NCBI GenBank assembly: GCA_030599585.1
Contig: JAUVNS010000006.1
Location: 192,001 to 256,000 of the forward strand
Direction: 5' to 3'
From: Promethearchaeota archaeon
GTDB lineage: Archaea > Asgardarchaeota > Lokiarchaeia > Sigyniarchaeales > SOKP01
DNA: 64,000 bases
Shown: in pieces, positions 1,132-17,808 of the stretch
Position numbering within the stretch: position 1 is the stretch's first letter
How the letters are laid out: every line of letters begins with the position of its first letter
Notes under the pieces: generated by a model
Databases searched by the model: none
What the model saw: the letters and a program-made list of their open reading frames with translations, nothing else
What the model was told of the DNA's origin: nothing
Translations under genes and position numbers: made by a program

Positions 1132-2316
1132 TTACCTTTTACGTTTGACAACGCGTACGATAATTCCGATTGTTACTATCGATGCCATTCCTAACATAAT
1201 TACCGAAAACCCATCAATAAATGGAGGTTCTGTTGTAGGTGCCGTACTTAAATACAAAGTCTTCCATGCTGCCGTAATGTACTTAAATTCGTGGTCGTGG
1301 TCGTAATTTCCATCGTAAATTGAGAGGGCAAACTTTATTGTATCTCCAAGCGACATAGCCTTATCAATAACTGCGTTACTCACTGCTAAATCTCGTTCTA
1401 CCTCTAGACTCCAGCCAGCGCCATCGTGATTGGCTTTAGCTTCAATAAAGTATCGTTCTTCAGAACTAAGTGGTGATGGAAAGATTCCGAAAGCAGTATA
1501 TTCACTATCGCCAGATCTCTTTCGCGATTCTGTATCTAAATACTCGTTTTCAGCAAAAGAGAAATCATGTGAGATGACAGTTGCTGCTATAGCGCTGGTG
1601 TTCGTGCTAACAGACCATCTATATTTTCCTGTCGCATTAGCGACATAGTAGACTTGATCTCCTACAACACCACCCATATCTGAAAGGTCCCATATATCCC
1701 AATTAGAGCCTGTATAGTTTTCTTGATAGTAAATCGCTGTATGGGCTGCAACTGGAAGACCGTTGTAAGTTCCTGCACTATCTCCAGTATTAAAAGCAAC
1801 TCCATGTCGTGGAACAACTATGTGTTTTTCGCCTTCAGAATCTGTTCTTGCCGCTTTCCAATGCCAATGATCAGCCGTACCACTTGTTGTAGCGCCATTA
1901 GTCGATGTATTCATGCACGGAGCATCCATATCGTTTAAACCCTCTATAAGGATCATTGCAGATAAACGATCTTCATGACCTTCGATAGTATTATTCTCTG
2001 TTGGATCAGTCCAATTGAAAAAAAGTCTTATTTTAGTATCAGTGACAACAGCTTTCATTGTTACAATACGTTGGTTTACTGGCATTACTGTAGCACTTGG
2101 AGTAGCTGTCAATGAAAATGTCTGACTCGTTGCAGTTGACCAAAATGCTTCATTATCGAGACCATCAACAGTAATATCACCAGATACATAAGGTGCTGTG
2201 ATATTAGGTGATTGTGCTCCGACAAGAGCGGCATTTGAGACAAATAGAATCGTAGATATTCCGAATATCGCTAACAAGATTATACTAAATCTTTTATTTT
2301 TCATTTTCTTCAACAA
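1132..2316 (-). CDS. Exported DOMON-like heme-binding protein (ethylbenzene dehydrogenase gamma-subunit / EB_dh family) with a Loki-CTERM-like C-terminal anchor
   Basis: Signal peptide; family motifs ITVDGxxxExxW, MKAV...FNWTDPT, EDRLS, PCM, DHWHWKAART, W-S-LEVERDL and YDG...FKY; C-terminal IDGF + TM helix + basic tail (KRKR). Confidence 0.8.
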   Translation of the reverse strand: MLKKMKNKRFSIILLAIFGISTILFVSNAALVGAQSPNITAPYVSGDITVDGLDNEAFWSTATSQTFSLTATPSATVMPVNQRIVTMKAVVTDTKIRLFFNWTDPTENNTIEGHEDRLSAMILIEGLNDMDAPCMNTSTNGATTSGTADHWHWKAARTDSEGEKHIVVPRHGVAFNTGDSAGTYNGLPVAAHTAIYYQENYTGSNWDIWDLSDMGGVVGDQVYYVANATGKYRWSVSTNTSAIAATVISHDFSFAENEYLDTESRKRSGDSEYTAFGIFPSPLSSEERYFIEAKANHDGAGWSLEVERDLAVSNAVIDKAMSLGDTIKFALSIYDGNYDHDHEFKYITAAWKTLYLSTAPTTEPPFIDGFSVIMLGMASIVTIGIIVRVVKRKR

Positions 2317-3540: not shown

Positions 3541-4920
3541 TTATTGGTAAAATTCACAATCGTTTAGGAGTTGGGATATGTCCATTACTTTTAGTGGGGA
3601 ATTATCTTCATTTGCTACTTGGAATAAGTTATTCTTACAAAATACGCATGAGCTCACTAAAACTTCGGCATTTGTTTCAACTGCTTCTTTCAATCTATCC
3701 TCACGAATTCTAATCATACAAGTACGAGTCTCAGCTATTCTATCTCTTCCTACCTCACCAGCAATGTCTCCATATAGCGCTTTAACTCCGCCCCCCGCCC
3801 CACAACACCAGGACATATCTCTATTATGTTTCATTTCGTATAATTTAACGCCTTCAATCATATTTATTAATTCTCTCGGTTCCTCAAACACGCCACAATA
3901 TCTCCCTAAATGGCACGGATCGTGATAAGTTATCAATAAGGGATTTTCTTTTGTTCGCTTGGTATATCTTATTTTAAGGTTTTTTTCCTTTACCTTTTTT
4001 AACACAAATTGAGTTAGATGGAAAATATCAAATCCTAGATTTCCACCAGCAAACTTAGAATATTCTAAAGTGAAAGTAGAAAAACAACCCGAGCAAGAAA
4101 AGACAACTTCAGAAACACCGCTTTCACGAATCATTTTATAATTATGTTTAATGAGCTCAATAGCCTCATCCTCTAAACCTGTGCGAAATAATACAGATCC
4201 GCAGCATCTTTCTTCTGGAAAAACATAAAATTCTATTCCTAGTTTTCCTAATACATCACTTGTAGCATTGACGAGTTCTCTATTTCGATAAGAGGAAGTA
4301 CAACCAATAAAATAGCCAACACTATCACTATTTCGTTTTCCTTTTTTTAAATCCTCAGATGAAAACTTTTCATCTATTAAATCAAGTTCCCGTTTTGTTC
4401 GTTCATAGGCTTGTTTACCAAATTCAGAACTCTCACACCAATTAAATCTATCACTATGATTTTCAAGATAAGGATTATTATTTTTAAGAATTGAATCTCG
4501 CATCCCTTTTAACCTGGCAGGTATAGCACCTCTTTTGACCACTGCTTTACGAAAATTTTGAAACACTTCAAGAGTATCGATTCCTACGGGACAAACAGTT
4601 TTACAATTCCCACAGAGCATACAGCGAAAAACAGAAGGTATTATCTCTTCCTTATCAAACTTAATATCCTTACGATCTAGTGCTTTGATAATTCTATTTC
4701 GCCCACCCGCATAATCAGTTTCTGACCAAGAGGTGTTATAAACTCTGCACACGTGACGACAATACCCACAATGAGTACAACGGTCATAACCGAATTTTTC
4801 TTCTTTTTCCTTTGTTTTTGGTTCAATTAGATTCTCTCTAGAAGGAGAAACTAAACCAGCAACGGGTGGACCTGTTGTAATTACATTTTTAATATCATTT
4901 TTTTCCTTGCCTTCACTCAT
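3541..4920 (-). CDS. Fe-S oxidoreductase, GlcF/GlpC/HdrD family (2x[4Fe-4S] plus two CCG domains)
   Basis: CTHCGYCRHVC and CMLCGNCKTVCP ferredoxin motifs; CCG domains YFIGC...CCG...CSGC and YHDPCHLGR...CCGAGGG...CVFC. Confidence 0.9.
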   Translation of the reverse strand: MSEGKEKNDIKNVITTGPPVAGLVSPSRENLIEPKTKEKEEKFGYDRCTHCGYCRHVCRVYNTSWSETDYAGGRNRIIKALDRKDIKFDKEEIIPSVFRCMLCGNCKTVCPVGIDTLEVFQNFRKAVVKRGAIPARLKGMRDSILKNNNPYLENHSDRFNWCESSEFGKQAYERTKRELDLIDEKFSSEDLKKGKRNSDSVGYFIGCTSSYRNRELVNATSDVLGKLGIEFYVFPEERCCGSVLFRTGLEDEAIELIKHNYKMIRESGVSEVVFSCSGCFSTFTLEYSKFAGGNLGFDIFHLTQFVLKKVKEKNLKIRYTKRTKENPLLITYHDPCHLGRYCGVFEEPRELINMIEGVKLYEMKHNRDMSWCCGAGGGVKALYGDIAGEVGRDRIAETRTCMIRIREDRLKEAVETNAEVLVSSCVFCKNNLFQVANEDNSPLKVMDISQLLNDCEFYQ

Positions 4921-5047: not shown

Positions 5048-6562
5048 TTATTTTTTAAAAGATATTTTATACAATAATTTTGCTGTCGTAAAAAGTAATG
5101 AAATCCGCCAATGTTTCATTCTAGCTTTAACTAAACGATAGGAGTTAAACATATCTTTGGAGTCTAGCTTATTCTTCAATATTTTTCTATTTTTTACGAC
5201 TTCTCGTCTGTATTTTCGCAGATAAAAGGTATTAACAATCCCTATTGTGTAGAGACTATCTCCTTGTTTGAATGCTTCCTTGGACAAATCGTGCAAGAAT
5301 GCCTTGACGGTAAAAAATTCGATTGGTCTAGTAATATCTGAGAGACCAAATATTTTTACTCGGCTCCATCCCTCTTCCCCAGAAATCGTATAAGTTGCGA
5401 TAGGAAATTTATACTTACTGGCTCTTTTTATATAACTTTCATAAAAGGATAACAACCTTTCATTTGAAATCCAGTATTCTTGAAATATGATATTCCTACT
5501 TGTCCTTCCAATTGCTACTTCTGCATCGCTGATATCGCGCCATTTTTCTTTTAAATAAGAATCATCTATTCTAACACCTTTAAAATTTTGAGCTATTCTA
5601 TCAGACCATGAAACACTTCTAACTGTTTCTTCTGGATCATCATAAAAAACGGCCCAAACTAACCAATCTTGACTTGGAAAATTGATGTGTGCATATTGTT
5701 CAAACTTTCGTTCTGAAATTGAAAGAAAAAATGGTTTATCTTGTGGGTTACTTACTAAGGCTTTATAATAATTAATTGCATCTTCAAGAGAGGTAAAACC
5801 GTAGCCTTCAATTTCTAAAGAAGTTTTTAAATTTGTAAGAGATAACACTACCTCCGAGATAGCGCCGTATATACCATAAGTTCCAGTAATATCATCAAGC
5901 GATATTTCTCCATTCGAATCCTTCGAAATATGTTCGATTTTCCCATTAGGAAGAACTAAAGTTAACGATATTATTGAATCGGCCATTGTGCCATACTTTG
6001 GCACCCCAATTCCCGCTTTCCCAGGAGTTGCTATGAAACCACCAACACAAGAAGTTTTGAAGCTAGTAGGATAAGCTTTAGGTGCAAGTCCGTAATCTGA
6101 AAGGTTTTCCATTAAGTTTAACCATGATATTCCTGCCCCCACTCTGACCGTCATTTTTTCAGTGTCGACATGCTCAACTTTGTTAATGCGACGCATATCG
6201 ATTATCACTCCACCCTTTGCAGGAGTTGCTGAGGAAAAGCAAGATGTACCAGCAGCTCTTATTGTTATAGGTAATGAGAGTTCCCAACACTTCTTGATTA
6301 ATAGAGATAAGCTCTCTGTATCCGCGGGTCTAACAATGATGCTAGCAAGATAATTCTTTTTGAATTTGTAATGATAGGATGGTAAAGATGTAAGGTCAGC
6401 AGATGCTGATTCAAGCTCGTATCTATTAGTGCTTACATGGTATGGGGAAATGAATTCTTTAACTATTTCTTCGAAATTACGCTTTTTTCCCCTCTTCTTT
6501 ACTTTTTCTTGAGTTTGGGTTATCTTCCCGTTTATTTTTTCCTTGACTAATGTCTCATTCAT
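5048..6562 (-). CDS. FAD-binding oxidoreductase (PCMH/VAO fold; GlcD / D-lactate dehydrogenase-like)
   Basis: IVRP...ITIRAAGTS...GGVIIDMRRINKV, VGAGI, SCVGGFIA, KYG, LVLPNGKI, GTYGIYGAI and C-terminal LDSKDMFN. Confidence 0.88.
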   Translation of the reverse strand: MNETLVKEKINGKITQTQEKVKKRGKKRNFEEIVKEFISPYHVSTNRYELESASADLTSLPSYHYKFKKNYLASIIVRPADTESLSLLIKKCWELSLPITIRAAGTSCFSSATPAKGGVIIDMRRINKVEHVDTEKMTVRVGAGISWLNLMENLSDYGLAPKAYPTSFKTSCVGGFIATPGKAGIGVPKYGTMADSIISLTLVLPNGKIEHISKDSNGEISLDDITGTYGIYGAISEVVLSLTNLKTSLEIEGYGFTSLEDAINYYKALVSNPQDKPFFLSISERKFEQYAHINFPSQDWLVWAVFYDDPEETVRSVSWSDRIAQNFKGVRIDDSYLKEKWRDISDAEVAIGRTSRNIIFQEYWISNERLLSFYESYIKRASKYKFPIATYTISGEEGWSRVKIFGLSDITRPIEFFTVKAFLHDLSKEAFKQGDSLYTIGIVNTFYLRKYRREVVKNRKILKNKLDSKDMFNSYRLVKARMKHWRISLLFTTAKLLYKISFKK

Positions 6563-6604: not shown

Positions 6605-7636
6605 TTACTTACTTTTCATTCTATTCTTACGCAATTTCGCTTCTACATACCACAATAAAACTCCTATTGATACAGGTATGATCAAACTCATTACAATGGG
6701 TAGAATGTTTATTATTAAATCATCTAAAGCTGGGGGAACTATTATAAGACCTAAAATGTATCCTGTCCACCAGCAAGCCAATGTAATATATCCCGTAAGT
6801 TTTGCATATTTACGCTCAGCTGCAATTCCAAACAACATACTAAGAAGCCCAGTAAATAATCCCGTAGCACCTAAAATGATATGGCTTACATGGACCCAAA
6901 AAGGCTCAAACGAAAACCAAATATCTATATTATTTAAATCAAATTGGTTAATCAAAGAAATAGCGTTGATCAGGGTTAATATCCAAGAGGCTCCACTAAA
7001 TATTCCGTGGATTTTCACAAATTTGTTTTCGTTTATTAATACGAGGATGGTTCCAACAGAAAGAAGTATCAAAGCAGACATACCGAGGAGTAATCCAAAG
7101 TGATCAAATATTTCGAACTCGGGTTCAGGTGGGGCAACACCTCCAACACTAAATCCAATTATAATATGAGAAAAAGCAGGTGCTCCACTTGCAGAATTGT
7201 TTCCTGCTAGAATGAAAAGATAGTAAAAACCGTCTGTTTCAGGAATCGTAATATTAAAAGTAATAATCATCGAGTTTGGATTCGAATCTTTATCTTCTCC
7301 AGAGCCATCCAATATTTTATCAGTAGTAGGAAGAATCTTTATATCCTTATTCTGCATTACGGTTGTGGTTTCATTAGGAGCTTGAACAAATAAAAAGGTT
7401 CCGGTAGCAGTTACATTAAAAATAATAACATCTGAAGTGGTTACATTAAAGATAATAGCATCCGAGGGATTTACGGTAGTGCCATTTATATCAGCTGAAA
7501 TTGTATATCCTCCGGGTACTGTATGACATATGTCATGGTCTAATACTTGGTCTGGAGTTGCTGTTCCATTCAGGACCAGTAAAAATATTGGTAGACTAAT
7601 AATTACGATAAATAGTACGAAAATTTTCTTTTTCAT
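6605..7636 (-). CDS. Exported beta-domain with an HxxCH motif, fused to a C-terminal cytochrome-b(561)-like 5-TM domain
   Basis: N-terminal signal/TM; HDICH at aa 34-38 (nt 7523-7537); PPEPE linker; TM helices carry His residues (DHFG, KIHG, VHVSH) placed like b-heme ligands. Confidence 0.6.
   Translation of the reverse strand: MKKKIFVLFIVIISLPIFLLVLNGTATPDQVLDHDICHTVPGGYTISADINGTTVNPSDAIIFNVTTSDVIIFNVTATGTFLFVQAPNETTTVMQNKDIKILPTTDKILDGSGEDKDSNPNSMIITFNITIPETDGFYYLFILAGNNSASGAPAFSHIIIGFSVGGVAPPEPEFEIFDHFGLLLGMSALILLSVGTILVLINENKFVKIHGIFSGASWILTLINAISLINQFDLNNIDIWFSFEPFWVHVSHIILGATGLFTGLLSMLFGIAAERKYAKLTGYITLACWWTGYILGLIIVPPALDDLIINILPIVMSLIIPVSIGVLLWYVEAKLRKNRMKSK
7410..7467. repeat. 30-nt in-frame tandem duplication (SDAIIFNVTT / SDVIIFNVTA)
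   Basis: gttacattaaaaataataacatctga at 7410 and gttacattaaagataatagcatccga at 7440. Confidence 0.7.
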
Positions 7637-7840
7637 TATCCTTACATTGTATTGTGATAATTTTAATTGATGTTATAAAACAATTAAAGGTTTTAATTAA
7701 GAATTATAAGTCAATTTTAAACATTGATGCTAAAATTGCACCTTTTTTCTAAATGCATCCATAAGAGAGAAAGAGTTAGGTTCTTGTTTATAAATTTTTA
7801 TGATAATCTTTTTTAACACTAGTTATTTCATTTTTTTATA

Positions 7841-9553
7841 ATGAAGTTTGATCACTATACACTCAAGAAGATATTTCTTATTGATTTAATAGTGATCCTA
7901 AGTGTTGTTATTGTTATTCCTCTCGTTTTAGATTTATTTGGGTTAAATGTCAAAATATTGGTCATTTCTTTTATAGGGAACCTTCTGATTATTTCAACTA
8001 TCATAATTACGATTTTTGATCTATTTTATCTTTTAAGGCTTAAACGAAACATTTATCTATTATCTTCTTTAAGCATGGCTTTGTCAATTTCTTTATTTTT
8101 CCTCCTTGAATATTGCTTTGTTAACGACTATTTTGATATAATATATGTTTGGAGCTATAATGAAACTACTCTCCCACTTGTATACAAATTTGTGGCAATT
8201 TGGGCTGGCGAAGCAGGTTCTATCATGACTTGGATGGTATTTAATACTATAGTTATTTTCTTCTATAGGCTCAAGAATCAAAATAGAGATGACACCGTCT
8301 TTATAATGTCAACTATAGTCTCAATGCTAATTTCTTCGGTCTTTCTCATAATTTTATTTTTCTATAACCCCTTTCAAACAGAGACCCCAATTATATTTCC
8401 TAACGGGAGAGGATTAAATTCACTTTTAATATCACCATTTATGATATGGCATCCATTATTTACATTTATTGCTTACGCAACTTTCTTAATTCCTTTTACT
8501 ATTTCAATTATTAGATTATTAAAACCAAACTTATCGCTACAAAATCCCTACCAAAAATCTTTTTACGATTTTAGCTTGAAGTTTGGATGGTTAGTTTTGA
8601 CTTTAAGTATTGGATTGGGAGCTTATTGGGCAAAAGTAGCGTTAACATGGGGTAGGTATTGGGGATGGGATCCTGTTGAGACTGTTTCTCTTATCCCATG
8701 GTTCCTTAGTACAGCTTACTTTCATACAATAACTTTTAAAAAGACTAATAGTAAACTAGTAAAAATTAATGGTATAATGATTTTTTTATCAATAATTTTT
8801 TCTACTTTAATAACGCGGGGAGGAGGTTTAACATCATTACATGCCTTTACAGGTGAAAGTAATCTCATTATCTTGACTTTAATAGTTGGTTCCATATTGG
8901 TTGTGTGTTCACTTTATGTGATTTATGAAACACTGAATTCTTTATCTGAAAATTACAAGAAAACAAGACTCTTTTTAGATTATTTAAGTTATTTATGTTT
9001 GGTTATGCTTGCCTTTGTTTGTATATTTGGCCTATTAATTTCTCCTCTTACATATTTCCTCTCTCTTTTTTCTAATATAAATGTCTTATATGTAGGAACG
9101 GACTACTTCATTTTAACAACATTGATTTTAGCTTCCGTATTGGTCATATCATTAGTTTTTTGTTCTTTTTATGGGACATATAAGCTTAAAGTAATAGCTA
9201 TTATATTAGTTATCGGAGTAATAGTACAAACTATACTCTCCTTTGTGTTATTTTCCATTTCCGGTGTCTGGATGAATCCAGTGATTTCTATATTTATTAT
9301 CGCATTACTATCTTCGATTCTGAGACTAATAAAAGATTTTGACATAAATACGGGTTTAAAGCAGTATTTAAGAATAAATTCGAAAACATATGTGCATATT
9401 GGTTTATCGTTAATTTTAATTGGGACGCTAATTAATCCAGGGATTTGGATATTTCAGGATATTTTCTACATTTCGGGGTTTATTTTTTTTATGAGCGGAA
9501 TAATTCCCTCTATTTTTATCTTTTTTTTTCTCAGAAGAAATAAGTTAAAGTGA
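7841..9553 (+). CDS. ccmF: Cytochrome c maturation heme lyase CcmF
   Basis: YKFVAIWAGEAGS, GRGLNSLL...MIWHPL, WWD domain GAYWA...WGRYWGWDPVETVSLIPW...AYFH, ITRGG..SLHAF and a C-terminal YVHIG histidine. Confidence 0.95.
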   Translation: MKFDHYTLKKIFLIDLIVILSVVIVIPLVLDLFGLNVKILVISFIGNLLIISTIIITIFDLFYLLRLKRNIYLLSSLSMALSISLFFLLEYCFVNDYFDIIYVWSYNETTLPLVYKFVAIWAGEAGSIMTWMVFNTIVIFFYRLKNQNRDDTVFIMSTIVSMLISSVFLIILFFYNPFQTETPIIFPNGRGLNSLLISPFMIWHPLFTFIAYATFLIPFTISIIRLLKPNLSLQNPYQKSFYDFSLKFGWLVLTLSIGLGAYWAKVALTWGRYWGWDPVETVSLIPWFLSTAYFHTITFKKTNSKLVKINGIMIFLSIIFSTLITRGGGLTSLHAFTGESNLIILTLIVGSILVVCSLYVIYETLNSLSENYKKTRLFLDYLSYLCLVMLAFVCIFGLLISPLTYFLSLFSNINVLYVGTDYFILTTLILASVLVISLVFCSFYGTYKLKVIAIILVIGVIVQTILSFVLFSISGVWMNPVISIFIIALLSSILRLIKDFDINTGLKQYLRINSKTYVHIGLSLILIGTLINPGIWIFQDIFYISGFIFFMSGIIPSIFIFFFLRRNKLK

Positions 9554-9673
9554 AAATCTATGGAATAGATTAAGAAATGTATCTTTTTAGTAGTTCTCTT
9601 AATTTTAATTTAGATAAATCTCATAATATAATCGTTTGAAATTAATTCAAATTGAAACTCAATTATCGATCAT

Positions 9674-9690
9674 AGTTTAAGAATGAAACT
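9674..9690. promoter_or_regulatory. Third AGTTT-N7-AAACT site, upstream of the stalked HxxCH protein gene
   Basis: agtttaagaatgaaact; a half-matching site (taattcaaattgaaact) lies at 9643-9659. Confidence 0.4.
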
Positions 9691-9885
9691 GTGGCCTATT
9701 TGATTGTTTAAATCAACCCAAATTAATAAAAGTTATAAATTATAACAAATTTTTTCAAATTAAGCAATTTTATAATATATTTGATAAGGTCAAATTCAAA
9801 ATGAACTTTATCAAACTATTAAAAAAATAGAAATACAACTAAAGAGCATTTAAATCTTTAGTTTTTTAGGGAAAAAGGGGTTTTA

Positions 9886-12800
9886 ATGAAAATAAACAAG
9901 AAAATTTCATCTTTTTTAATCACGACGATACTGTTTTTATCGATTACGGGGCTTGTAATAGCCAGAACGAGTCAATTTAGTGATTTTACAGGAGAAGGGC
10001 ATTCAAGCTGTCACGGAAATATAACAGAAAGCACAAGTGGGTATATTTCTTTATCGTCAAGTTCAGGATCATCTGTAGCGCCAAGTGAAACTTTTACAAT
10101 AACAATTCAAATATTAAGTTTTAGTGAGGCTCTCAATGAAAAAAAAAAAACTACAGTAGGGTTTCCAAGTGGATCTCCTGGTAGAGGAGATAATAAGGAT
10201 TTTTCCTTTAACACAACTCAAGAAGAAATCGATATAGATAGTTCTGGGAATTCAGTTACATTAGATTTTCAAGTTACAGCACCAGCAACTGAACAAACCT
10301 ATACTCTCCATTCTGATGCTATTTACAAAGGCGGCTCAACCTATTTTGCTCATGGTAATTTTACTGTTACTGTGGAAGTGCAAAATAATCCACCTCAATT
10401 TAGTAATATAGTTGAGAGTAGCGATCCTTTAGAATTTGGCCAACAAGAAACTTTTCAAGTCGATGTGACTGATTCTGAAACAAGTGTAGACACTGTCTTT
10501 ATTGAATTAGAAGGTACTAACTACACTATGTCTAATACTGTTGGAGATACATTCGAGTATAACTGGATTTCAAATACACTTGGCACAAAAAATTATGTTT
10601 TTTATGCAAATGATACAGATGGAAGTTGGAATTCAACAAGTGGAAATATAAATATAATTGATACTACTAATCCAACTTTGACAAATTTAATTGAAAGCGC
10701 CGATCCTTTAGAGTTAGGTCAAATAGAAACGATTCAAATCAATGCAACCGATTTGTCTGGTATCAGTCAAGTTATGATAGAGATTGAAAGTGCAAATTAC
10801 ACAATGGTAAATATTGGTGGAACTATATGGGAATACGACAGCTGGACTCCAGTTACCACCGGATTGAAACTATATACTATTTTTACGAACGATACTGAAG
10901 GTAATTGGAATTCTCTAAGTAATTCAATAACTGTTCAAGATACGGTACAACCCTCGTTGACAAGTCTAGTAGAAAGTGCAGACCCTTTAGAGTTAGGACA
11001 AACAGAAACGATCCAAATCAATGCAACAGATTTATCTGGTATTAGTCATGTTTTAATCGAAATCGCCAGCACGAATTACAGCATGAACCAAATTGATACA
11101 AACACTTACCAATTTAATACATGGAATCCGTCATCAGTGGGAGTAAAAGGTTACACCATTTATGCAAACGATTCTAAAGGAAATTGGAATTCTCTAAGTA
11201 ATTCAATAACGGTTCAAGATACTACTCTTCCATCTCTTTTTAATTTAGTTGAAATTACTGATCCTATAGAGATAGGCCAAACAGAAACGATTCAAATTAA
11301 CGCAACTGATTTATCTGGTATTAGTCATGTGCTTATAGAAATTGGTGGTATAAATTATACGATGACAAAAATCAGTAGCGCAACTTGGGAATACAATAGT
11401 TGGACGCCGTTGTCTGCCGGTTTAAAATCTTATAAGATTTTTGTGAATGATACTGAAGGCAATTGGAACTCTTTAAACGATTCAATAACCGTTCAAGACA
11501 CAAATCAACCTTTGTTAACGAATTTGGTAGAAAGTGCTGACCCTTTAGAGTTAGGACAAACAGAAACAATCCAAATCAATGCAACTGATTTATCTGGTAT
11601 TAGTCATGTGTTTATCGAAATTGGTGGTATAAATTATACATTAACAAAAATCAATAGCGCAACTTGGGAATACAATAGTTGGATACCAACAACAGTAGGA
11701 TTAAAATCTTATACTATTTATGCTAATGACACTGAAGGTAATTGGAATTCAGTATTAAACGATATCACAGTAGAAGACACAAAAGCACCGAAATATTCCG
11801 ATTTAATTGAAAGTGCTGATCCACTCCCATATGGTCAGAATGAAACAATTTCCATTAATGTTTATGATAATCCAGGTTCTGGAGTGAAGGAAGTAATTCT
11901 TGAATATAACAATATTAATCACACGATGATTTTTATGGGATTCAGCACCTGGTCATGGCCAAATTGGAAACCATCATCCACAGGAACCTTTAATTATACC
12001 ATTTACATGATAGATAATAGCGATAATTTAAATACGACAACAGGTTCTATTGAAGTTATCATATCTTCGGGTCCGACAATTCAAAACATATCTAAAAGTG
12101 CAGATCCTTTAGAGCTAGGCCAAATAGAAACTATTCAGGTTGATGTTAATGATACTGATGGAATTAGTGTTGTATTTATAGAAATCGGGGGACAGAACTA
12201 TACGATGGGAAACATTGGTGGAAGTACATATGAATATTCCTGGTCACCTAATTTAACTGGGACAAAATTGTTTACAGTATACGCTAATGATTCTTTAAAT
12301 AATTGGAATCAATTAAGTAACAGCATCTATGTTCAAGACACAATACCTCCAAATTACGCAAATTTAATAGAAAATAGCGATCCTGTTGAATTGGGAAATA
12401 GCGTAACAATTTCTATTGACGCTACAGACTTATCAGGCATAAATCAAGTTAAAATTGAATTTGATGGCGTGAATTATACTATGTCTAATCTAGGAGGAAA
12501 TATGTGGTCAAACGATACTTGGATTCCTGGGACTGTTGATGTCTTTTCATACACTATATTTATTCAAGATAAATCAAATAATTGGAATAGCACAAGTGGA
12601 AGTATTGAAGTAATAGACACAATATCGCCTGAATTATCAAATTTATATGAGGAATACGAACCAATAGAATTAGGCCAGAGTCAAACGATTCAGGTTAATA
12701 TCAGTGACTTAGCTTCTATAAGTTTAGTACTACTTGAATTTCAGGGAGTAAATTATACTATGACAAAAATAGGTAGCCAAACTTGGGAATACAACAACTT

Positions 12801-14427
12801 AATTCCAATTGGAATAGGTTTAAAAGTCTATTCAATTTACGCAAATGATTCGAGTAATAACTGGATTTCTTTAACTGCCAATTTTACAGTTGTAGATACT
12901 AATGCTCCTGTATTATCTAATTTATTTGAAAATGCAGATCCACTGGAACTAGGACAGACGGTTACAATTCAAATCACTGCAACTGATTTATCTGGTATTA
13001 GCTACGTACTAATAGAGCTTGATAGCGTGAATTATACCATGGCATTTATAGGTGGCAACACATGGGAGTATAATAGTTGGACGCCAATTACCTCCGGATT
13101 AAAATTGTATACTATTTACGCAAATGATACTAACGGAAATTGGAATTCTTTCAATAGCGATATTACTATAGTAGATTCGAGTGGACCATCTTTAGGTAGT
13201 TTGTCCGAAAGTGCAGATCCACTAGAACTAGGACAGACAGTAACAATTCAAATCAATGCTACTGATTCATCTGGTATCAGTCATGTGCTAATAGAACTGG
13301 ATAGCGTGAATTATACCATGGCATTTTTAGGTGGCAACACATGGGAATATAATAGTTGGACTCCAAGTACTACGGGATTGAAATTGTATACAATTTACGC
13401 AAATGACACGGAAGGAAATTGGAATTTATTAATCGATTCAATAACAGTTCAAGATACAATAATACCGGTCTTATCAACCCTTATAGAAAGTGCTGATCCA
13501 TTAGAACTAGGGGAGACAGAAACTATTCAAATTAATGCAACTGATTTATCTGGTATTAGCTACGTGCTAATAGAGCTTGATGGTGTGAATTATACCATGG
13601 CATTTATAGGTGGCAACATATGGGAATATAATAGTTGGACACCAATTACCTCCGGATTAAAACTGTATACAATTTACGCAAATGATACTAACGGAAATTG
13701 GAATTCTTTCAATAGCGATATTACTATAGTAGATTCGAGTGGACCATCTTTAAGTAATTTATTTGAGAATGCGGACCCGTTAGAATTAGGACGGACGGAA
13801 ACTATTCAAATTGATGTTAATGATTTATCAGGAATCAGTCATGTGTTAATAGAAATCAGTGGTTTAAATTACACGATGACAAACATCAGTAGCGCAACTT
13901 GGGAATACAATAGTTGGACGCCGTTGTTTACCGGTTTAAAATCTTATAAGATTTTTGTGAATGATACTGAAGGTAATTGGAACACTTTAAGCGATTTTAT
14001 CACCGTTCGAGACACAAATCAACCTTTGTTAACGAATTTGGTAGAAAGTGCAGACCCTTTAGAGTTAGGACAAACAGAAACAATCCAAATCAATGCAACT
14101 GATCTATCTGGTATCAGTCACGTGCTAATTGAAATCAGTGGTTTAAATTACACGATGACGAAAATTAGTAGTGCAACCTGGGAATATAATAATTGGATAC
14201 CAACAAAAGAAGGATTAAAATCTTATACTATTTATGCTAATGACACTGAAGGTAATTGGAATTCAGAAAGTGATACAATTATGGTGAATACGCAAGGTGG
14301 TAATGAGAATACCGGTATGTCTGAGGAATTTCTTGATTTAATTGTTATATTTAGTACATTCGGTAGTTTAGGCGTTTTTTCGTTAGTCTTAGTGATTAAA
14401 CTAAGACCTAAACGTTTTATTAAGTAA
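9886..14427 (+). CDS. Large surface protein: N-terminal HxxCH domain, 14 Ig-like repeats of ~93 aa, C-terminal TM anchor
   Basis: Signal peptide; HSSCH at aa 39-43 (nt 10000-10014); repeats ESADPLELGQTETIQINATDLSGISHV...NYTM...WEYNSW.P...YTIYANDTEGNWNS; many NxS/T sequons; C-terminal TM + KLRPKRFIK. Confidence 0.85.
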   Translation: MKINKKISSFLITTILFLSITGLVIARTSQFSDFTGEGHSSCHGNITESTSGYISLSSSSGSSVAPSETFTITIQILSFSEALNEKKKTTVGFPSGSPGRGDNKDFSFNTTQEEIDIDSSGNSVTLDFQVTAPATEQTYTLHSDAIYKGGSTYFAHGNFTVTVEVQNNPPQFSNIVESSDPLEFGQQETFQVDVTDSETSVDTVFIELEGTNYTMSNTVGDTFEYNWISNTLGTKNYVFYANDTDGSWNSTSGNINIIDTTNPTLTNLIESADPLELGQIETIQINATDLSGISQVMIEIESANYTMVNIGGTIWEYDSWTPVTTGLKLYTIFTNDTEGNWNSLSNSITVQDTVQPSLTSLVESADPLELGQTETIQINATDLSGISHVLIEIASTNYSMNQIDTNTYQFNTWNPSSVGVKGYTIYANDSKGNWNSLSNSITVQDTTLPSLFNLVEITDPIEIGQTETIQINATDLSGISHVLIEIGGINYTMTKISSATWEYNSWTPLSAGLKSYKIFVNDTEGNWNSLNDSITVQDTNQPLLTNLVESADPLELGQTETIQINATDLSGISHVFIEIGGINYTLTKINSATWEYNSWIPTTVGLKSYTIYANDTEGNWNSVLNDITVEDTKAPKYSDLIESADPLPYGQNETISINVYDNPGSGVKEVILEYNNINHTMIFMGFSTWSWPNWKPSSTGTFNYTIYMIDNSDNLNTTTGSIEVIISSGPTIQNISKSADPLELGQIETIQVDVNDTDGISVVFIEIGGQNYTMGNIGGSTYEYSWSPNLTGTKLFTVYANDSLNNWNQLSNSIYVQDTIPPNYANLIENSDPVELGNSVTISIDATDLSGINQVKIEFDGVNYTMSNLGGNMWSNDTWIPGTVDVFSYTIFIQDKSNNWNSTSGSIEVIDTISPELSNLYEEYEPIELGQSQTIQVNISDLASISLVLLEFQGVNYTMTKIGSQTWEYNNLIPIGIGLKVYSIYANDSSNNWISLTANFTVVDTNAPVLSNLFENADPLELGQTVTIQITATDLSGISYVLIELDSVNYTMAFIGGNTWEYNSWTPITSGLKLYTIYANDTNGNWNSFNSDITIVDSSGPSLGSLSESADPLELGQTVTIQINATDSSGISHVLIELDSVNYTMAFLGGNTWEYNSWTPSTTGLKLYTIYANDTEGNWNLLIDSITVQDTIIPVLSTLIESADPLELGETETIQINATDLSGISYVLIELDGVNYTMAFIGGNIWEYNSWTPITSGLKLYTIYANDTNGNWNSFNSDITIVDSSGPSLSNLFENADPLELGRTETIQIDVNDLSGISHVLIEISGLNYTMTNISSATWEYNSWTPLFTGLKSYKIFVNDTEGNWNTLSDFITVRDTNQPLLTNLVESADPLELGQTETIQINATDLSGISHVLIEISGLNYTMTKISSATWEYNNWIPTKEGLKSYTIYANDTEGNWNSESDTIMVNTQGGNENTGMSEEFLDLIVIFSTFGSLGVFSLVLVIKLRPKRFIK
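10384..14292 (+). repeat. 14 tandem coding repeats of ~279 nt (Ig-like/beta-sandwich units)
   Basis: Counted from the translation using the recurring (E)S(A)DPLELG and GNWNS motifs; repeats 10/12 and 4-5/13-14 are nearly identical over long stretches. Confidence 0.9.
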
Positions 14428-14495
14428 TAATTACTTTTTATTTTTTTAATTACAATTTTTATTGAGTCTTAAATTAACCTTTATTATAGTTAATT

Positions 14496-15209
14496 ATGAA
14501 TTCCTCTAAAACGATTTTATTAGAATGTGAAAACATTTCTAAACAATATGGTTTTTTCTTCGCTCTGAACAAAATATCTTTTATTTTAGACGAGAACTCC
14601 ATTTTGGGGGTAATTGGTGCTAATGGTGCAGGAAAAACGACTCTTATTAGAATCTTATCTGGTCTGACTTCTCCAACATCTGGTACAATTGCCATAAAAG
14701 GAAGGAATTATAAGACAGATACTAAACGTATCAAACAAATTATTGGAACAATCACTGACAAATCGTTTTTATATGAAGAGCTAACAATTTATGAAAACCT
14801 AAAATTCTACAGTAAATTGTACTCCATGTACAATAAAAATGAATTTAAAGAAAAAATTGAACATTACGCAAAGAAATTTAATCTTTCTGACTGGATTTTT
14901 GAACCAATTAGTAACTTATCAACTGGAATGAAACAAAAAGTGGAAATAATCCGAAGTTTGATCCACAATCCATCAATCTTGCTTTTAGATGAGCCGTTTT
15001 CTGGACTAGACTTTACTACCATAAAATTATTGATAAAAATTTTAACAGAATTAAAAGAAAAAGAAAATTTAACATTAATTATAGCAACTCATAAAATTGA
15101 GGTAGTTCAGGAGATCAGCGACACAATTTTAATTTTAAAAAAGGGTAAGATAAGTAAATTTGCTCCAAAAAACGAGATAGATATAAGTAAAATTGAATCC
15201 TACTTTTGA
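14496..15209 (+). CDS. ccmA: Heme-maturation ABC ATPase CcmA
   Basis: Walker A GANGAGKTT, signature LSTGMKQK, Walker B LLLDEPFSGLD, H-loop IATH; directly upstream of ccmB. Confidence 0.85.
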   Translation: MNSSKTILLECENISKQYGFFFALNKISFILDENSILGVIGANGAGKTTLIRILSGLTSPTSGTIAIKGRNYKTDTKRIKQIIGTITDKSFLYEELTIYENLKFYSKLYSMYNKNEFKEKIEHYAKKFNLSDWIFEPISNLSTGMKQKVEIIRSLIHNPSILLLDEPFSGLDFTTIKLLIKILTELKEKENLTLIIATHKIEVVQEISDTILILKKGKISKFAPKNEIDISKIESYF

Positions 15210-15221
15210 GGTGTGAATTGA

Positions 15222-15947
15222 GTGAAAAACAAAAAAAGAACTGCTAAATCTGGCTTAAAACTCTTCATAACAATTCTGCAAAAGGATATTAAATCCGAAA
15301 TTAGGCAAGTCAATGACATCTTTTCGATTATTTTGTTTGGAGTTATTTCAATATTTATTTTTTCTTCCTCATATAACACAATTAATCTAGGTGGTATGAT
15401 GCCTATTGAGATATTTGTTATTCAAATATGGCTAATTATTTTCTTTACACTTATTTTTATTATGATCAAGCTATTTGTTCAAGAAAAAGAGAAAGGAACG
15501 CTGGACGGACTTACAACTTCTCCAGTTTCTAATACTATTCTTCTGATTAGTAAAGTGGTTTTTTGTTTTATTTTATTAAGCCTGATTGAATTGATATTAC
15601 TCCTTTTTAGCTTTTTTATCTCTGTTCCTTCGGTTCAAGCTTTGAATATTAATGAATTTCTGTATTACGTTATGATAGGAATTGTGTTACCTACTCTGGA
15701 CATATCTATTTGTGGAACCTTAGTTTCCGCTTTATCAATGTATTCAAAAAATAAGTCTTTCGTCTTACCTTTATTACTATTCCCAATAATACTTCCAATA
15801 ACATCTCCCATAATATCGCTAAATATAAAACTATTAGAAGGTGAACTAATTTCAATGGTATTTATTGAAATTTTGTTTTTAGTGGCTCACGCTATGCTGA
15901 TGTTTTCGATTTTAGTATTAGTTTCGGAAGAACTATTATCGGAATAG
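15222..15947 (+). CDS. ccmB: Heme-maturation ABC permease CcmB
   Basis: ILQKDIKSEIR, FVQEKEKGTLDGLTTSP, ISK, GTLVSALS and VLPLLLFPIILP are typical CcmB motifs; 6 TM helices. Confidence 0.9.
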   Translation: MKNKKRTAKSGLKLFITILQKDIKSEIRQVNDIFSIILFGVISIFIFSSSYNTINLGGMMPIEIFVIQIWLIIFFTLIFIMIKLFVQEKEKGTLDGLTTSPVSNTILLISKVVFCFILLSLIELILLLFSFFISVPSVQALNINEFLYYVMIGIVLPTLDISICGTLVSALSMYSKNKSFVLPLLLFPIILPITSPIISLNIKLLEGELISMVFIEILFLVAHAMLMFSILVLVSEELLSE

Positions 15948-15953
15948 TATAAA

Positions 15954-16301
15954 TTAACTACATTGCACAAGAATTTGTGTTGCGTTTAAGTATAATAATG
16001 AGTTAAACAAGCCCATTACAACTACTTGAATCCCATCCTCTACATCATCAGGAACAGTAATATCTGAAACATCAATAAGAATCTTATCGTCACCTTGTGT
16101 TAAGTTAAAATTTCCCCCGGAATACCCTTCTACTATTCCAATTACTTGAATCTCTTGATTATGGTATCTTGAAGGATCTTCAAGAACTTGGGAAATTTGA
16201 AGATAGGGTCTGAAATTAAAAATCAAAATTACCGTAATGATGCTGATAGCTCCAATGATCCCTAAACCTGCAATAATACGCGATTTTTTCACAATTAACA
16301 C
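15954..16301 (-). CDS. ccmE: Heme chaperone CcmE, Cys-type, ending at ...VQCS-stop
   Basis: N-terminal TM, PYLQISQV, IQVIGIV, FNLTQG, VPDDVEDGIQVVVMG (OB fold) and ATQILVQC; lies in the ccm cluster; GTG start. Confidence 0.85.
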   Translation of the reverse strand: MLIVKKSRIIAGLGIIGAISIITVILIFNFRPYLQISQVLEDPSRYHNQEIQVIGIVEGYSGGNFNLTQGDDKILIDVSDITVPDDVEDGIQVVVMGLFNSLLYLNATQILVQCS

Positions 16302-16304
16302 TGA

Positions 16305-16448
16305 TTATTTACTTTGATTTAATCTCTTAAGCCTTTTTTCTATTTTTCTTTTTGACAATTTAGGATACAAGATTAGAATTATGATTATTAACCAAAATAA
16401 CACGTAGCTTATGCTTATTGTGGTTATATCTAAGATTAACTCGCTCAT
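16305..16448 (-). CDS. ccmD: CcmD-like small single-TM protein (47 aa), absent from the ORF track
   Basis: MSELILDITTISISYVLFWLIIIILILYPKLSKRKIEKRLKRLNQSK*; ATGA overlap with the ccmC stop, ends 3 nt before ccmE; Tyr-containing TM + basic tail in the canonical C-D-E position. Confidence 0.75.
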   Translation of the reverse strand: MSELILDITTISISYVLFWLIIIILILYPKLSKRKIEKRLKRLNQSK

Positions 16449-17152
16449 CTTCCTTCCTCCATTTTAATATATAAAATTTCTTGTAATTTTTCTTTTGCTA
16501 TATCTAACTCCTTCAATTCACGAATCAAGTAGATAAATAGTAGAGTCATAGCAATTAAGTTAAAAAATAGAATGAAAAGTTTAATAGAATCCCAATAAAT
16601 ATTTCCTGGTTCCCCGGGATTTGGATTTATGAGGGGATGTAAACTTGTGAAAAGAATTGCTGAGAGATAACTTAAAGGGACGGTCGGAAAAAAAACAATT
16701 CCTAAAATCGCAGAAAGTTTAGCCTTTTTCTCCCTTTCTTCGATAAAGTTTCTAAATATTAAATATGCGACATAGGAGAAGAATAATATGAGCGTTGTAG
16801 TTTGTCTGGCATCACTCCACTGCCAGTATATATTATTATATGAGCCCGAAGTCGCATTAAACCACAGTGACCCCGTTATTAACGTAAAGGCAACAAAAAA
16901 AACTCCAACTATTATGCTATTTTTTCCTAAATTACTCCAGTTCATCTTTTTTTGTTTAAGATATAATAGATGACCTATCAGGCTTACACCGAATGAAAAG
17001 TAAGACAACCAAGCAGCTGATACATGATAAAAAAATATTATATATATAATTCTTTGAAACGATGCTAAACCTAATATTAAGAATAAATTGAGTATTAATA
17101 ACATTAAAGAAACTATAAGAAGATATGAATTTTTTTTTAATTTATAATTCAA
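16445..17152 (-). CDS. ccmC: Heme-handling protein CcmC
   Basis: IFFYHVSAAW (His1), LITGSLW...YWQWSDARQTT (variant WWD domain), SLHP (His2); 6 TM helices. Confidence 0.92.
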   Translation of the reverse strand: MNYKLKKNSYLLIVSLMLLILNLFLILGLASFQRIIYIIFFYHVSAAWLSYFSFGVSLIGHLLYLKQKKMNWSNLGKNSIIVGVFFVAFTLITGSLWFNATSGSYNNIYWQWSDARQTTTLILFFSYVAYLIFRNFIEEREKKAKLSAILGIVFFPTVPLSYLSAILFTSLHPLINPNPGEPGNIYWDSIKLFILFFNLIAMTLLFIYLIRELKELDIAKEKLQEILYIKMEEGR

Positions 17153-17244: not shown

Positions 17245-17808
17245 TTAGAAGTTACCACATCCATCGCATTTACCGTCAAGATAGGCTTCACAGTCAACGC
17301 AGATATTACCGCAATTGTGCTCATTACTTTCGTTGCTAAAAAGATTAAGGGGTAAATATTTTGGTCTGATAAAATCCGAACCGAAGATTAATGCTGAATG
17401 TAATAATCCTTTTTTATTAGTTGGGCCGCAATGATTTACATATCTGTGTAGGACATCTAAACTCTGTCCTATGATCCCCATTATTAAATTGTATTGTCCC
17501 GTGACTTGTGCTAACAAAAAAACTCTTGGACATTCAGAATAGGAGTTAACAATATTTCTTATTTCCTCATAATTGCCCCATTCCATGAGTATAAACAGTG
17601 TTTTATAATTTACTTTGTTAATATTGATATTACCTTGAACCTTAAGAATGCCTTTATTTTCTAACTTTGCAATTCTTTTAGCGATTCCGGTATGGCTCAT
17701 AGTTTCATCGTCTTTTTTGAAGATAATATCTTTTAAACTTGTTAAACTCTCTCGACCGCTTTTAAAGAGCGCTTTTACAATTTGTTTATCTACGTTATCA
17801 AATTCCAT
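17245..17808 (-). CDS. Lrp/AsnC-family regulator with a C-terminal Cys cluster
   Basis: DNVDKQIVKAL...GR...SHTGIAKRIAKLENKGIL HTH; RAM domain CPRV...VTGQYNL; tail CGNICVDCEAYLDGKCDGC. Confidence 0.85.
   Translation of the reverse strand: MEFDNVDKQIVKALFKSGRESLTSLKDIIFKKDDETMSHTGIAKRIAKLENKGILKVQGNININKVNYKTLFILMEWGNYEEIRNIVNSYSECPRVFLLAQVTGQYNLIMGIIGQSLDVLHRYVNHCGPTNKKGLLHSALIFGSDFIRPKYLPLNLFSNESNEHNCGNICVDCEAYLDGKCDGCGNF

Follow-up and report, generated by a model that had tools for sequence, protein, structure and literature searches.

We identified a candidate non-canonical cytochrome c system in a 64,000-nucleotide stretch of a Promethearchaeota genome of the class Lokiarchaeia (GenBank assembly GCA_030599585.1, contig JAUVNS010000006.1, positions 192,001–256,000), hereafter the window. 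It contains cytochrome c maturation (Ccm) genes and, on either side of ccmF, genes for two exported proteins of 343 and 1513 residues, in which a His takes the place of the first Cys of the heme-binding motif (HxxCH). These HxxCH proteins are, as judged from sequence comparison, very probably covalent heme proteins matured by the Ccm machine. A more specific reading, which we hold at about even, is that the locus would be a variant System I with a Cys-type CcmE, dedicated to surface cytochromes with a single heme and only the second motif Cys, which would form an outward electron path. The initial annotation had proposed that this locus matures a non-canonical cytochrome, and the proposal is supported: the motif is conserved, linked to ccm genes and accompanied by no ordinary CxxCH client that could be found in the genome.

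Both motifs were found where they had first been placed, each with a CAT first codon (Table 1). Neither client has the canonical c-type motif with two Cys, C-x(n)-C-H; both read H-x2-C-H. The Cys counts also agreed with the initial annotation, C42 being the sole Cys of the 1513-residue protein and C37 being accompanied only by the membrane residue C288 in the 343-residue protein. A read error, considered implausible from the beginning, could be ruled out, as both codons recurred in another assembly, made from a public run that is possibly of the source sample, and more than 100 homologues retained the His. Homology of the two client domains was borne out by BLASTP (E 2e-5) and by alignment. 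In an alignment of 144 domain sequences, the Cys and the next His were the only invariant columns, and no His or Met besides those of the motif was conserved. The one feature that failed was the supposedly shared late His (FSH/FAH), as relatives instead showed FAT, WAS, YAS, AY or DY. The domain is a choice-of-anchor-V-like beta-sandwich, and its predicted model is all-beta. A window protein matched the choice-of-anchor V hidden Markov model (NF041895) with E 1.3e-6 and 28.6 bits, under the curated cut-off of 42; the same match was seen in 63/144 family members (best E 1e-9), and an atlas feature match pointed to a cluster with 27% Reeler. The domain is thus related to choice-of-anchor V and Reeler-like domains at a score below the cut-off, but differs from choice-of-anchor V in having a His for the first Cys and archaeal membrane anchors. 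A homologue of the 343-residue client, Lokiarch_23500 of Lokiarchaeum GC14_75, reads HDSCH and is annotated as hypothetical. Other spacings occur in the family. A C-x-C-H subfamily accounts for 16/144 rows (e.g., L061:8694-9546, L064:3063-6597, P0067, P0080 and P0113), and a Gly separates Cys and His in HEHCGH copies adjoining ccmF in two Loki loci (L345:4813-5622 and L352:11148-11924) and in a CCGH copy of a locus from family f16 (L357:14720-15634).

We then considered how the domain and the ccm genes are distributed. Profile searches of 161 genomes of the class detected the domain in 30, ccmF in 28 and CcmE in 29, and the ccmF and CcmE sets combined were exactly the 30 domain-bearing genomes, which are patchily distributed in two genera (11/42 and 19/54). 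The 20 loci examined had a recurrent layout, in which between one and four domain genes are interspersed among ccmCDE, ccmAB and ccmF. The Loki loci yielded 64 domains, of which 59 read H-x(2-4)-C-H, four had no upstream His, one read HEHCGH and none had a first Cys, so both the conservation of HxxCH in homologues and its tie to ccm genes hold. CcmF was 53–88% identical across the 28 genomes, with the closest named CcmF at 88%. His-less paralogues (TLGCH, TMGCH, TLSCH and VLGCH) were present in or beside some Loki Ccm clusters, and Fe-S (iron-sulfur)/CCG genes came next in each case of TLGCH and TMGCH. Two individual loci deserve mention. Downstream of His-less client genes, one of them (L345:13237-15532) has a thioredoxin-like gene, a DsbD_TM gene and a CC_Se family gene. 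The one-contig genome G067 (L096 / L350) has two tandem ccmF genes and an 89-residue, broken-looking CcmE ending in CCDRSTGV, and no ccmC turned up in the loci examined; its Ccm cluster may be decaying or rearranged.

Orthologues with a first Cys were found in the same phylum. In family f31, which is probably Thorarchaeia, the domain reads C-x(1-5)-C-H in 31/31 cases. The membrane-anchored form of this family is orthologous to the 343-residue client, with which it has in common four membrane His, downstream genes for a flavin adenine dinucleotide (FAD) enzyme and a CCG protein, and a nearby ccmF. In the orthologue alignment, the first Cys of f31 and the Loki His share one column, and the spacing range is equal. 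Because a Cys occupies the His position in these orthologues, the heme reading is much stronger. In a motif-masked tree, a quick one built from a short alignment of genome-linked rows, the window paralogues fell into different subfamilies, the 343-residue type grouping with the Cys-type orthologues (SH-aLRT 99), and a single clade of all His-type rows was rejected (p-AU 0.005, motif masked). Given this rejection, the motif appears to follow the genome and its maturation machine and not the paralogue. His-x-x-Cys-His is also a plausible metal site, and the domain might hold Cu, Zn or heme without a covalent bond, or might serve an auxotroph by capturing heme, with the Ccm set being a remnant or serving an undetected client. 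The variable first motif position across Asgard homologues (C, H or none; also CxCH), the truncated CcmE and the lack of detectable heme synthesis genes in the genome fit such a role. However, the ccm genes are intact, with the CcmF identities given above; they were seen in no genome that lacks the domain, and in the loci they alternate with the client genes; orthologues beside ccmF carry the canonical CxxCH; and the Tyr that the Loki CcmE lacks is dispensable in E. coli (PMC3601427). We regard this explanation as improbable.

The genome (4.85 Mb, 100% complete, 8.9% contamination) was translated whole and screened for other clients, using a hydrophobicity heuristic, not SignalP, for signal peptides and counting CxxCH on open reading frames (ORFs) of at least 100 residues. 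CxxCH was contained in 30 such ORFs, which resemble Fe-S, Zn-finger or radical SAM proteins of the cytoplasm; by this heuristic none of the 30 had the motif behind a signal peptide. Exported CxxCH proteins, initially noted as missing from the 64 kb, were thus not found by this screen anywhere in the genome. Among its 530 signal-like ORFs, only the two ccmF-flanking clients had H/C-x(1-5)-CH just past the signal. Ordinary clients in relatives were sought with two queries, a multiheme protein and the paired-CxxCH family. The 6–7-heme cytochrome that adjoins ccmF in f31 had no match in the 161 class genomes, and Paired_CXXCH matched none of the 30 Loki genomes searched, compared to 2/2 f31 control genomes.

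In the mechanism that we propose, CcmABCD would load heme onto CcmE, and CcmF would join it to the single client Cys by a 4-vinyl thioether, as in the euglenozoan A/FxxCH proteins, where the second motif Cys binds this vinyl (PMC5526843). The His after the Cys would be the proximal iron ligand. The upstream His would lie at the 2-vinyl position, most likely packing against the heme or helping to keep it in place, with or without addition to the vinyl. Because the domain has no further conserved His or Met, the heme iron would either lack a sixth ligand or, like that of cytochrome f, be ligated by the N-terminal amine that removal of the signal peptide exposes; we treat the latter possibility as a lead only. 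The presumed mature N-termini of the window proteins, at estimated cleavage sites, are R-T and T-P, and a small-aromatic-Pro sequence no more than 20 residues ahead of the Cys was found in 55/190 members versus 3/377 background ORFs. It could be argued that the upstream His is itself the sixth ligand, giving a bis-His heme with one thioether and replacing the ligand of the Cys-type orthologues, as no other His or Met is conserved and the spacing tolerates 2–4 residues, often Gly/Ser-rich. However, we infer that a residue four positions ahead of the proximal His would need to wrap round the heme edge, and another ligand would be required in Cys-type and His-less orthologues. The motif lies at a short, conserved distance from the point of signal cleavage, which suggests that the ligand is the N-terminal amine and not this His; a bis-His arrangement seems very improbable.

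The initial annotation allowed either one thioether or a combination of His-vinyl and Cys-vinyl bonds. The one-thioether option is favored and the His-vinyl option is the weaker, as His-less xxxCH paralogues are present in or beside some of the same Ccm clusters, making one thioether the common denominator of the family. A doubly linked heme would involve the same machine and clients, with the Cys thioether at the 4-vinyl and a bond from the His nitrogen to the 2-vinyl, formed by CcmF or later by autocatalysis as in GlbN. Several observations are consistent with it. The His occupies the column of the 2-vinyl-binding Cys (PMC5526843), mirrors its x2–x4 spacing and is fixed in several paralogue lineages, as the rejected His-type clade indicates. 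Bonds from His to the 2-vinyl are known from GlbN, and introducing a His close to a vinyl allows them to be engineered (PMC11951088); E. coli CcmE holds heme through a His (PMC3268396). Since the upstream His would be at the 2-vinyl, where GlbN forms its His–heme bond, a second link is chemically reasonable. On the other hand, paralogues such as TLGCH and VLGCH indicate that members of the family can do without the His. A second, His-vinyl bond in HxxCH proteins is doubtful in our view, and the doubly linked alternative as a whole is unlikely. More unlikely still would be its full form, in which one Cys thioether and one His-vinyl bond were combined with a System I that has a Tyr-less CcmE, a cytochrome f-like domain with an N-terminal amine ligand and an outward electron path.

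All of the ccm genes initially annotated in the window (ccmA, ccmB, ccmC, a ccmD-like gene, ccmE and ccmF) were identified by family matches, with CcmD at the PF04995 cut-off. The window thus contains the gene set of System I* (ccmA, ccmB, ccmC, ccmE and ccmF) of archaea and Desulfovibrio, with which it also has in common the Cys as the CcmE heme residue and the lack of a CcmH gene in the cluster (PMC3601427, PMC9084895). In contrast to System I*, the Loki set has a compact CcmF, a CcmC with an altered WWD segment, clients without the first Cys and a CcmE that stops, by our reading, two residues past the heme Cys and has no Tyr of CxxxY. System I* attaches heme to CxxCH clients, whereas no exported CxxCH protein was found in this genome, and CcmD is present here, unlike in Methanosarcina. 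CcmF retains a WWD motif (WGRYWGWDPVE) and four His (204, 295, 334 and 519); CcmC retains both His, with a divergent WWD segment. In the window and nearly all Loki relatives, CcmE ends in QCS-stop, preserving the heme Cys and lacking the Tyr of CxxxY, a motif described as universal in archaeal CcmE (PMC9084895); CcmE proteins of f31, f16 and f32 mostly end in the System I* motif CPS[KR]Y. As this Tyr is dispensable in E. coli CcmE (PMC3601427), the short Loki CcmE may function. Neither CcmH nor CcmG was found in the cluster, genome-wide searches for these two families not having been made, and DsbD/CcdA had no match in the genome. The missing ccmG/H/ccdA, first read as fitting clients that have no CxxC disulfide to reduce, counts as weak evidence, because archaeal System I* has no CcmH anyway (PMC3601427). 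We regard the Loki system as a variant form both of System I* and of the c-type cytochromes, outside either canonical definition. A different arrangement was observed in family f15, where genomes G211 and G212 have stand-alone CcmF-like proteins of 617–640 residues (L212:463-2385 and L214:490-2343). CcmE was not found in f15 genomes (0/12), the domain has a bare CH motif and adjoins a DUF2231-like membrane protein, and HemB is present; the CcmF-like protein is possibly a one-protein ligase for single-Cys clients.

Several points weigh against Ccm maturation of single-Cys clients. All 30 genomes come from two genera and are kin, not independent samples, for which reason we read the co-distribution as linkage and not as a statistic. 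Single-Cys proteins are very poor substrates of E. coli Ccm and stall as CcmE–heme–cytochrome complexes (PMC3268396), and the Loki machine would therefore have to act differently; adaptation to such clients may explain why CcmE is shortened, CcmF compact and CcmC altered. Finally, the genome of the window gave no match for HemB or HemC, and HemB was found in only 1/31 Loki relatives tested. HemB was also not found in 14/14 f31, 3/3 f16 and one f32 genomes, and Ccm loci of these families carry multiheme cytochromes, so these cytochrome-bearing Asgard archaea are apparent heme auxotrophs. Because HemB is equally missing from f31, whose ccm loci encode ordinary multiheme cytochromes, heme is presumably scavenged. 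The one HemB-positive Loki genome, G106, has an operon of hemA, an ahbB-cysG-like fusion, ahbA, an NirJ2/AhbD-like gene, hemL and hemB (L369:465-6583) about 13 kb from its Ccm cluster.

The conserved operon with FAD_binding_4 and Fer4/CCG proteins, Fer4/CCG fusions and the four-His membrane module suggest a redox role for the cluster. The helical membrane module of the 343-residue client has four conserved His (H179, H210, H249 and H252) and is probably a b-type heme module; its fold matches include cytochrome b561 and STEAP, not ranked above other helical bundles. In two homologues, P0017 and P0019 (L222:3560-6007), an H-type domain is fused via a membrane helix to Fer4_8 and CCG. Other fusions of the domain involved rhodanese (P0092) and a LanC-like domain (P0062). 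Electrons leaving the FAD enzyme in the cytoplasm would travel via the CCG Fe-S protein and the His-rich membrane module to the outer heme domain, and then to the like domain on the long immunoglobulin (Ig) stalk, providing an outward path in a lineage without multiheme cytochromes. Lactate use has been reported for Loki-3 (PMC8027215).

Table 1. Genes and motifs of the window, with strand in parentheses.
Feature	Coordinates	Remarks
Membrane client, 343 residues	6605..7636 (-)	Signal peptide, HDICH, beta-sandwich domain, helical membrane module; first gene of run with FAD and CCG genes
H34-D-I-C37-H38 motif of 343-residue client	7523..7537 (-)	First codon CAT
CcmF, 570 residues, compact	7841..9553 (+)	PF01578; nrfE/CcmF E 5.5e-46
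Stalk client, 1513 residues	9886..14427 (+)	Signal peptide, N-terminal-tip HSSCH domain (about 9964-10386), long Big_7 Ig-repeat stalk, C-terminal membrane anchor
H39-S-S-C42-H43 motif of 1513-residue client	10000..10014 (+)	First codon CAT
CcmA (ATP-binding cassette ATPase)	14496..15209 (+)	Family match; position beside ccmB fixed in relatives
CcmB	15222..15947 (+)	PF03379 E 1.2e-10
CcmE, Cys type	15954..16301 (-)	PF03100; end ...QCS-stop
CcmD, 47 residues	16305..16448 (-)	PF04995 E 1.3e-5, at cut-off; start overlaps ccmC stop; kept in relatives
CcmC	16445..17152 (-)	TIGR01191 E 6e-21; H43 and H172 flank altered WWD segment YNNIYWQWSDAR
FAD_binding_4 oxidoreductase, GlcD / D-lactate dehydrogenase-like	5048..6562 (-)	Downstream of membrane client in His-type and Cys-type lineages alike
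Fer4_8 + CCG iron-sulfur protein, GlcF/HdrD-like	3541..4920 (-)	Family match; in two homologues fused to H-type domain
AsnC-like helix-turn-helix regulator, Cys-rich C-terminus	17245..17808 (-)	Weak match, E 0.07; nearly every Loki locus has a single or double copy next to the cluster

Additional genes adjoin the cluster. The AsnC-like regulator has about seven Cys, and in related genomes it is often present as a divergent duplicate next to the cluster; it may act as the redox or metal sensor of this locus. A 394-residue protein encoded just downstream of the CCG gene (1132-2316, minus strand) contains an EB_dh domain (ethylbenzene dehydrogenase heme-b type, E 5.6e-15) and is possibly a further extracytoplasmic heme protein of the cluster.

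We found no description of the HxxCH motif or of Asgard Ccm clients in the literature searched. The nearest parallel is provided by euglenozoan mitochondrial cytochromes c/c1 (A/FxxCH), which likewise have one Cys followed by the proximal His, a single thioether being expected at the 4-vinyl (PMC5526843). However, these proteins have a class I fold, no Ccm and Ala or Phe at position 1, in contrast to the Ccm cluster, beta-sandwich and His of the Loki system. GlbN and E. coli holo-CcmE are precedents for addition of a His nitrogen to a heme vinyl (PMC11951088, PMC3268396), but in neither does a c-type motif combine this link with a Cys thioether, and neither is related to the Loki domain in sequence or fold. 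If our reading is correct, this would be, as far as the literature search shows, the first single-thioether (or His-linked) cytochrome from a Ccm machine. System I is held to require two Cys, and here a natural Ccm set has only one-Cys visible clients and a shortened CcmE, making heme release from CcmE and the order of vinyl attack directly testable. As the initial annotation anticipated, CxxCH screens overlook these proteins, which roughly one in five of the searched Lokiarchaeia genomes encode, the original Lokiarchaeum GC14_75 among them. Such overlooked candidate cytochromes bear on whether Lokiarchaeia pass electrons to partners or minerals.

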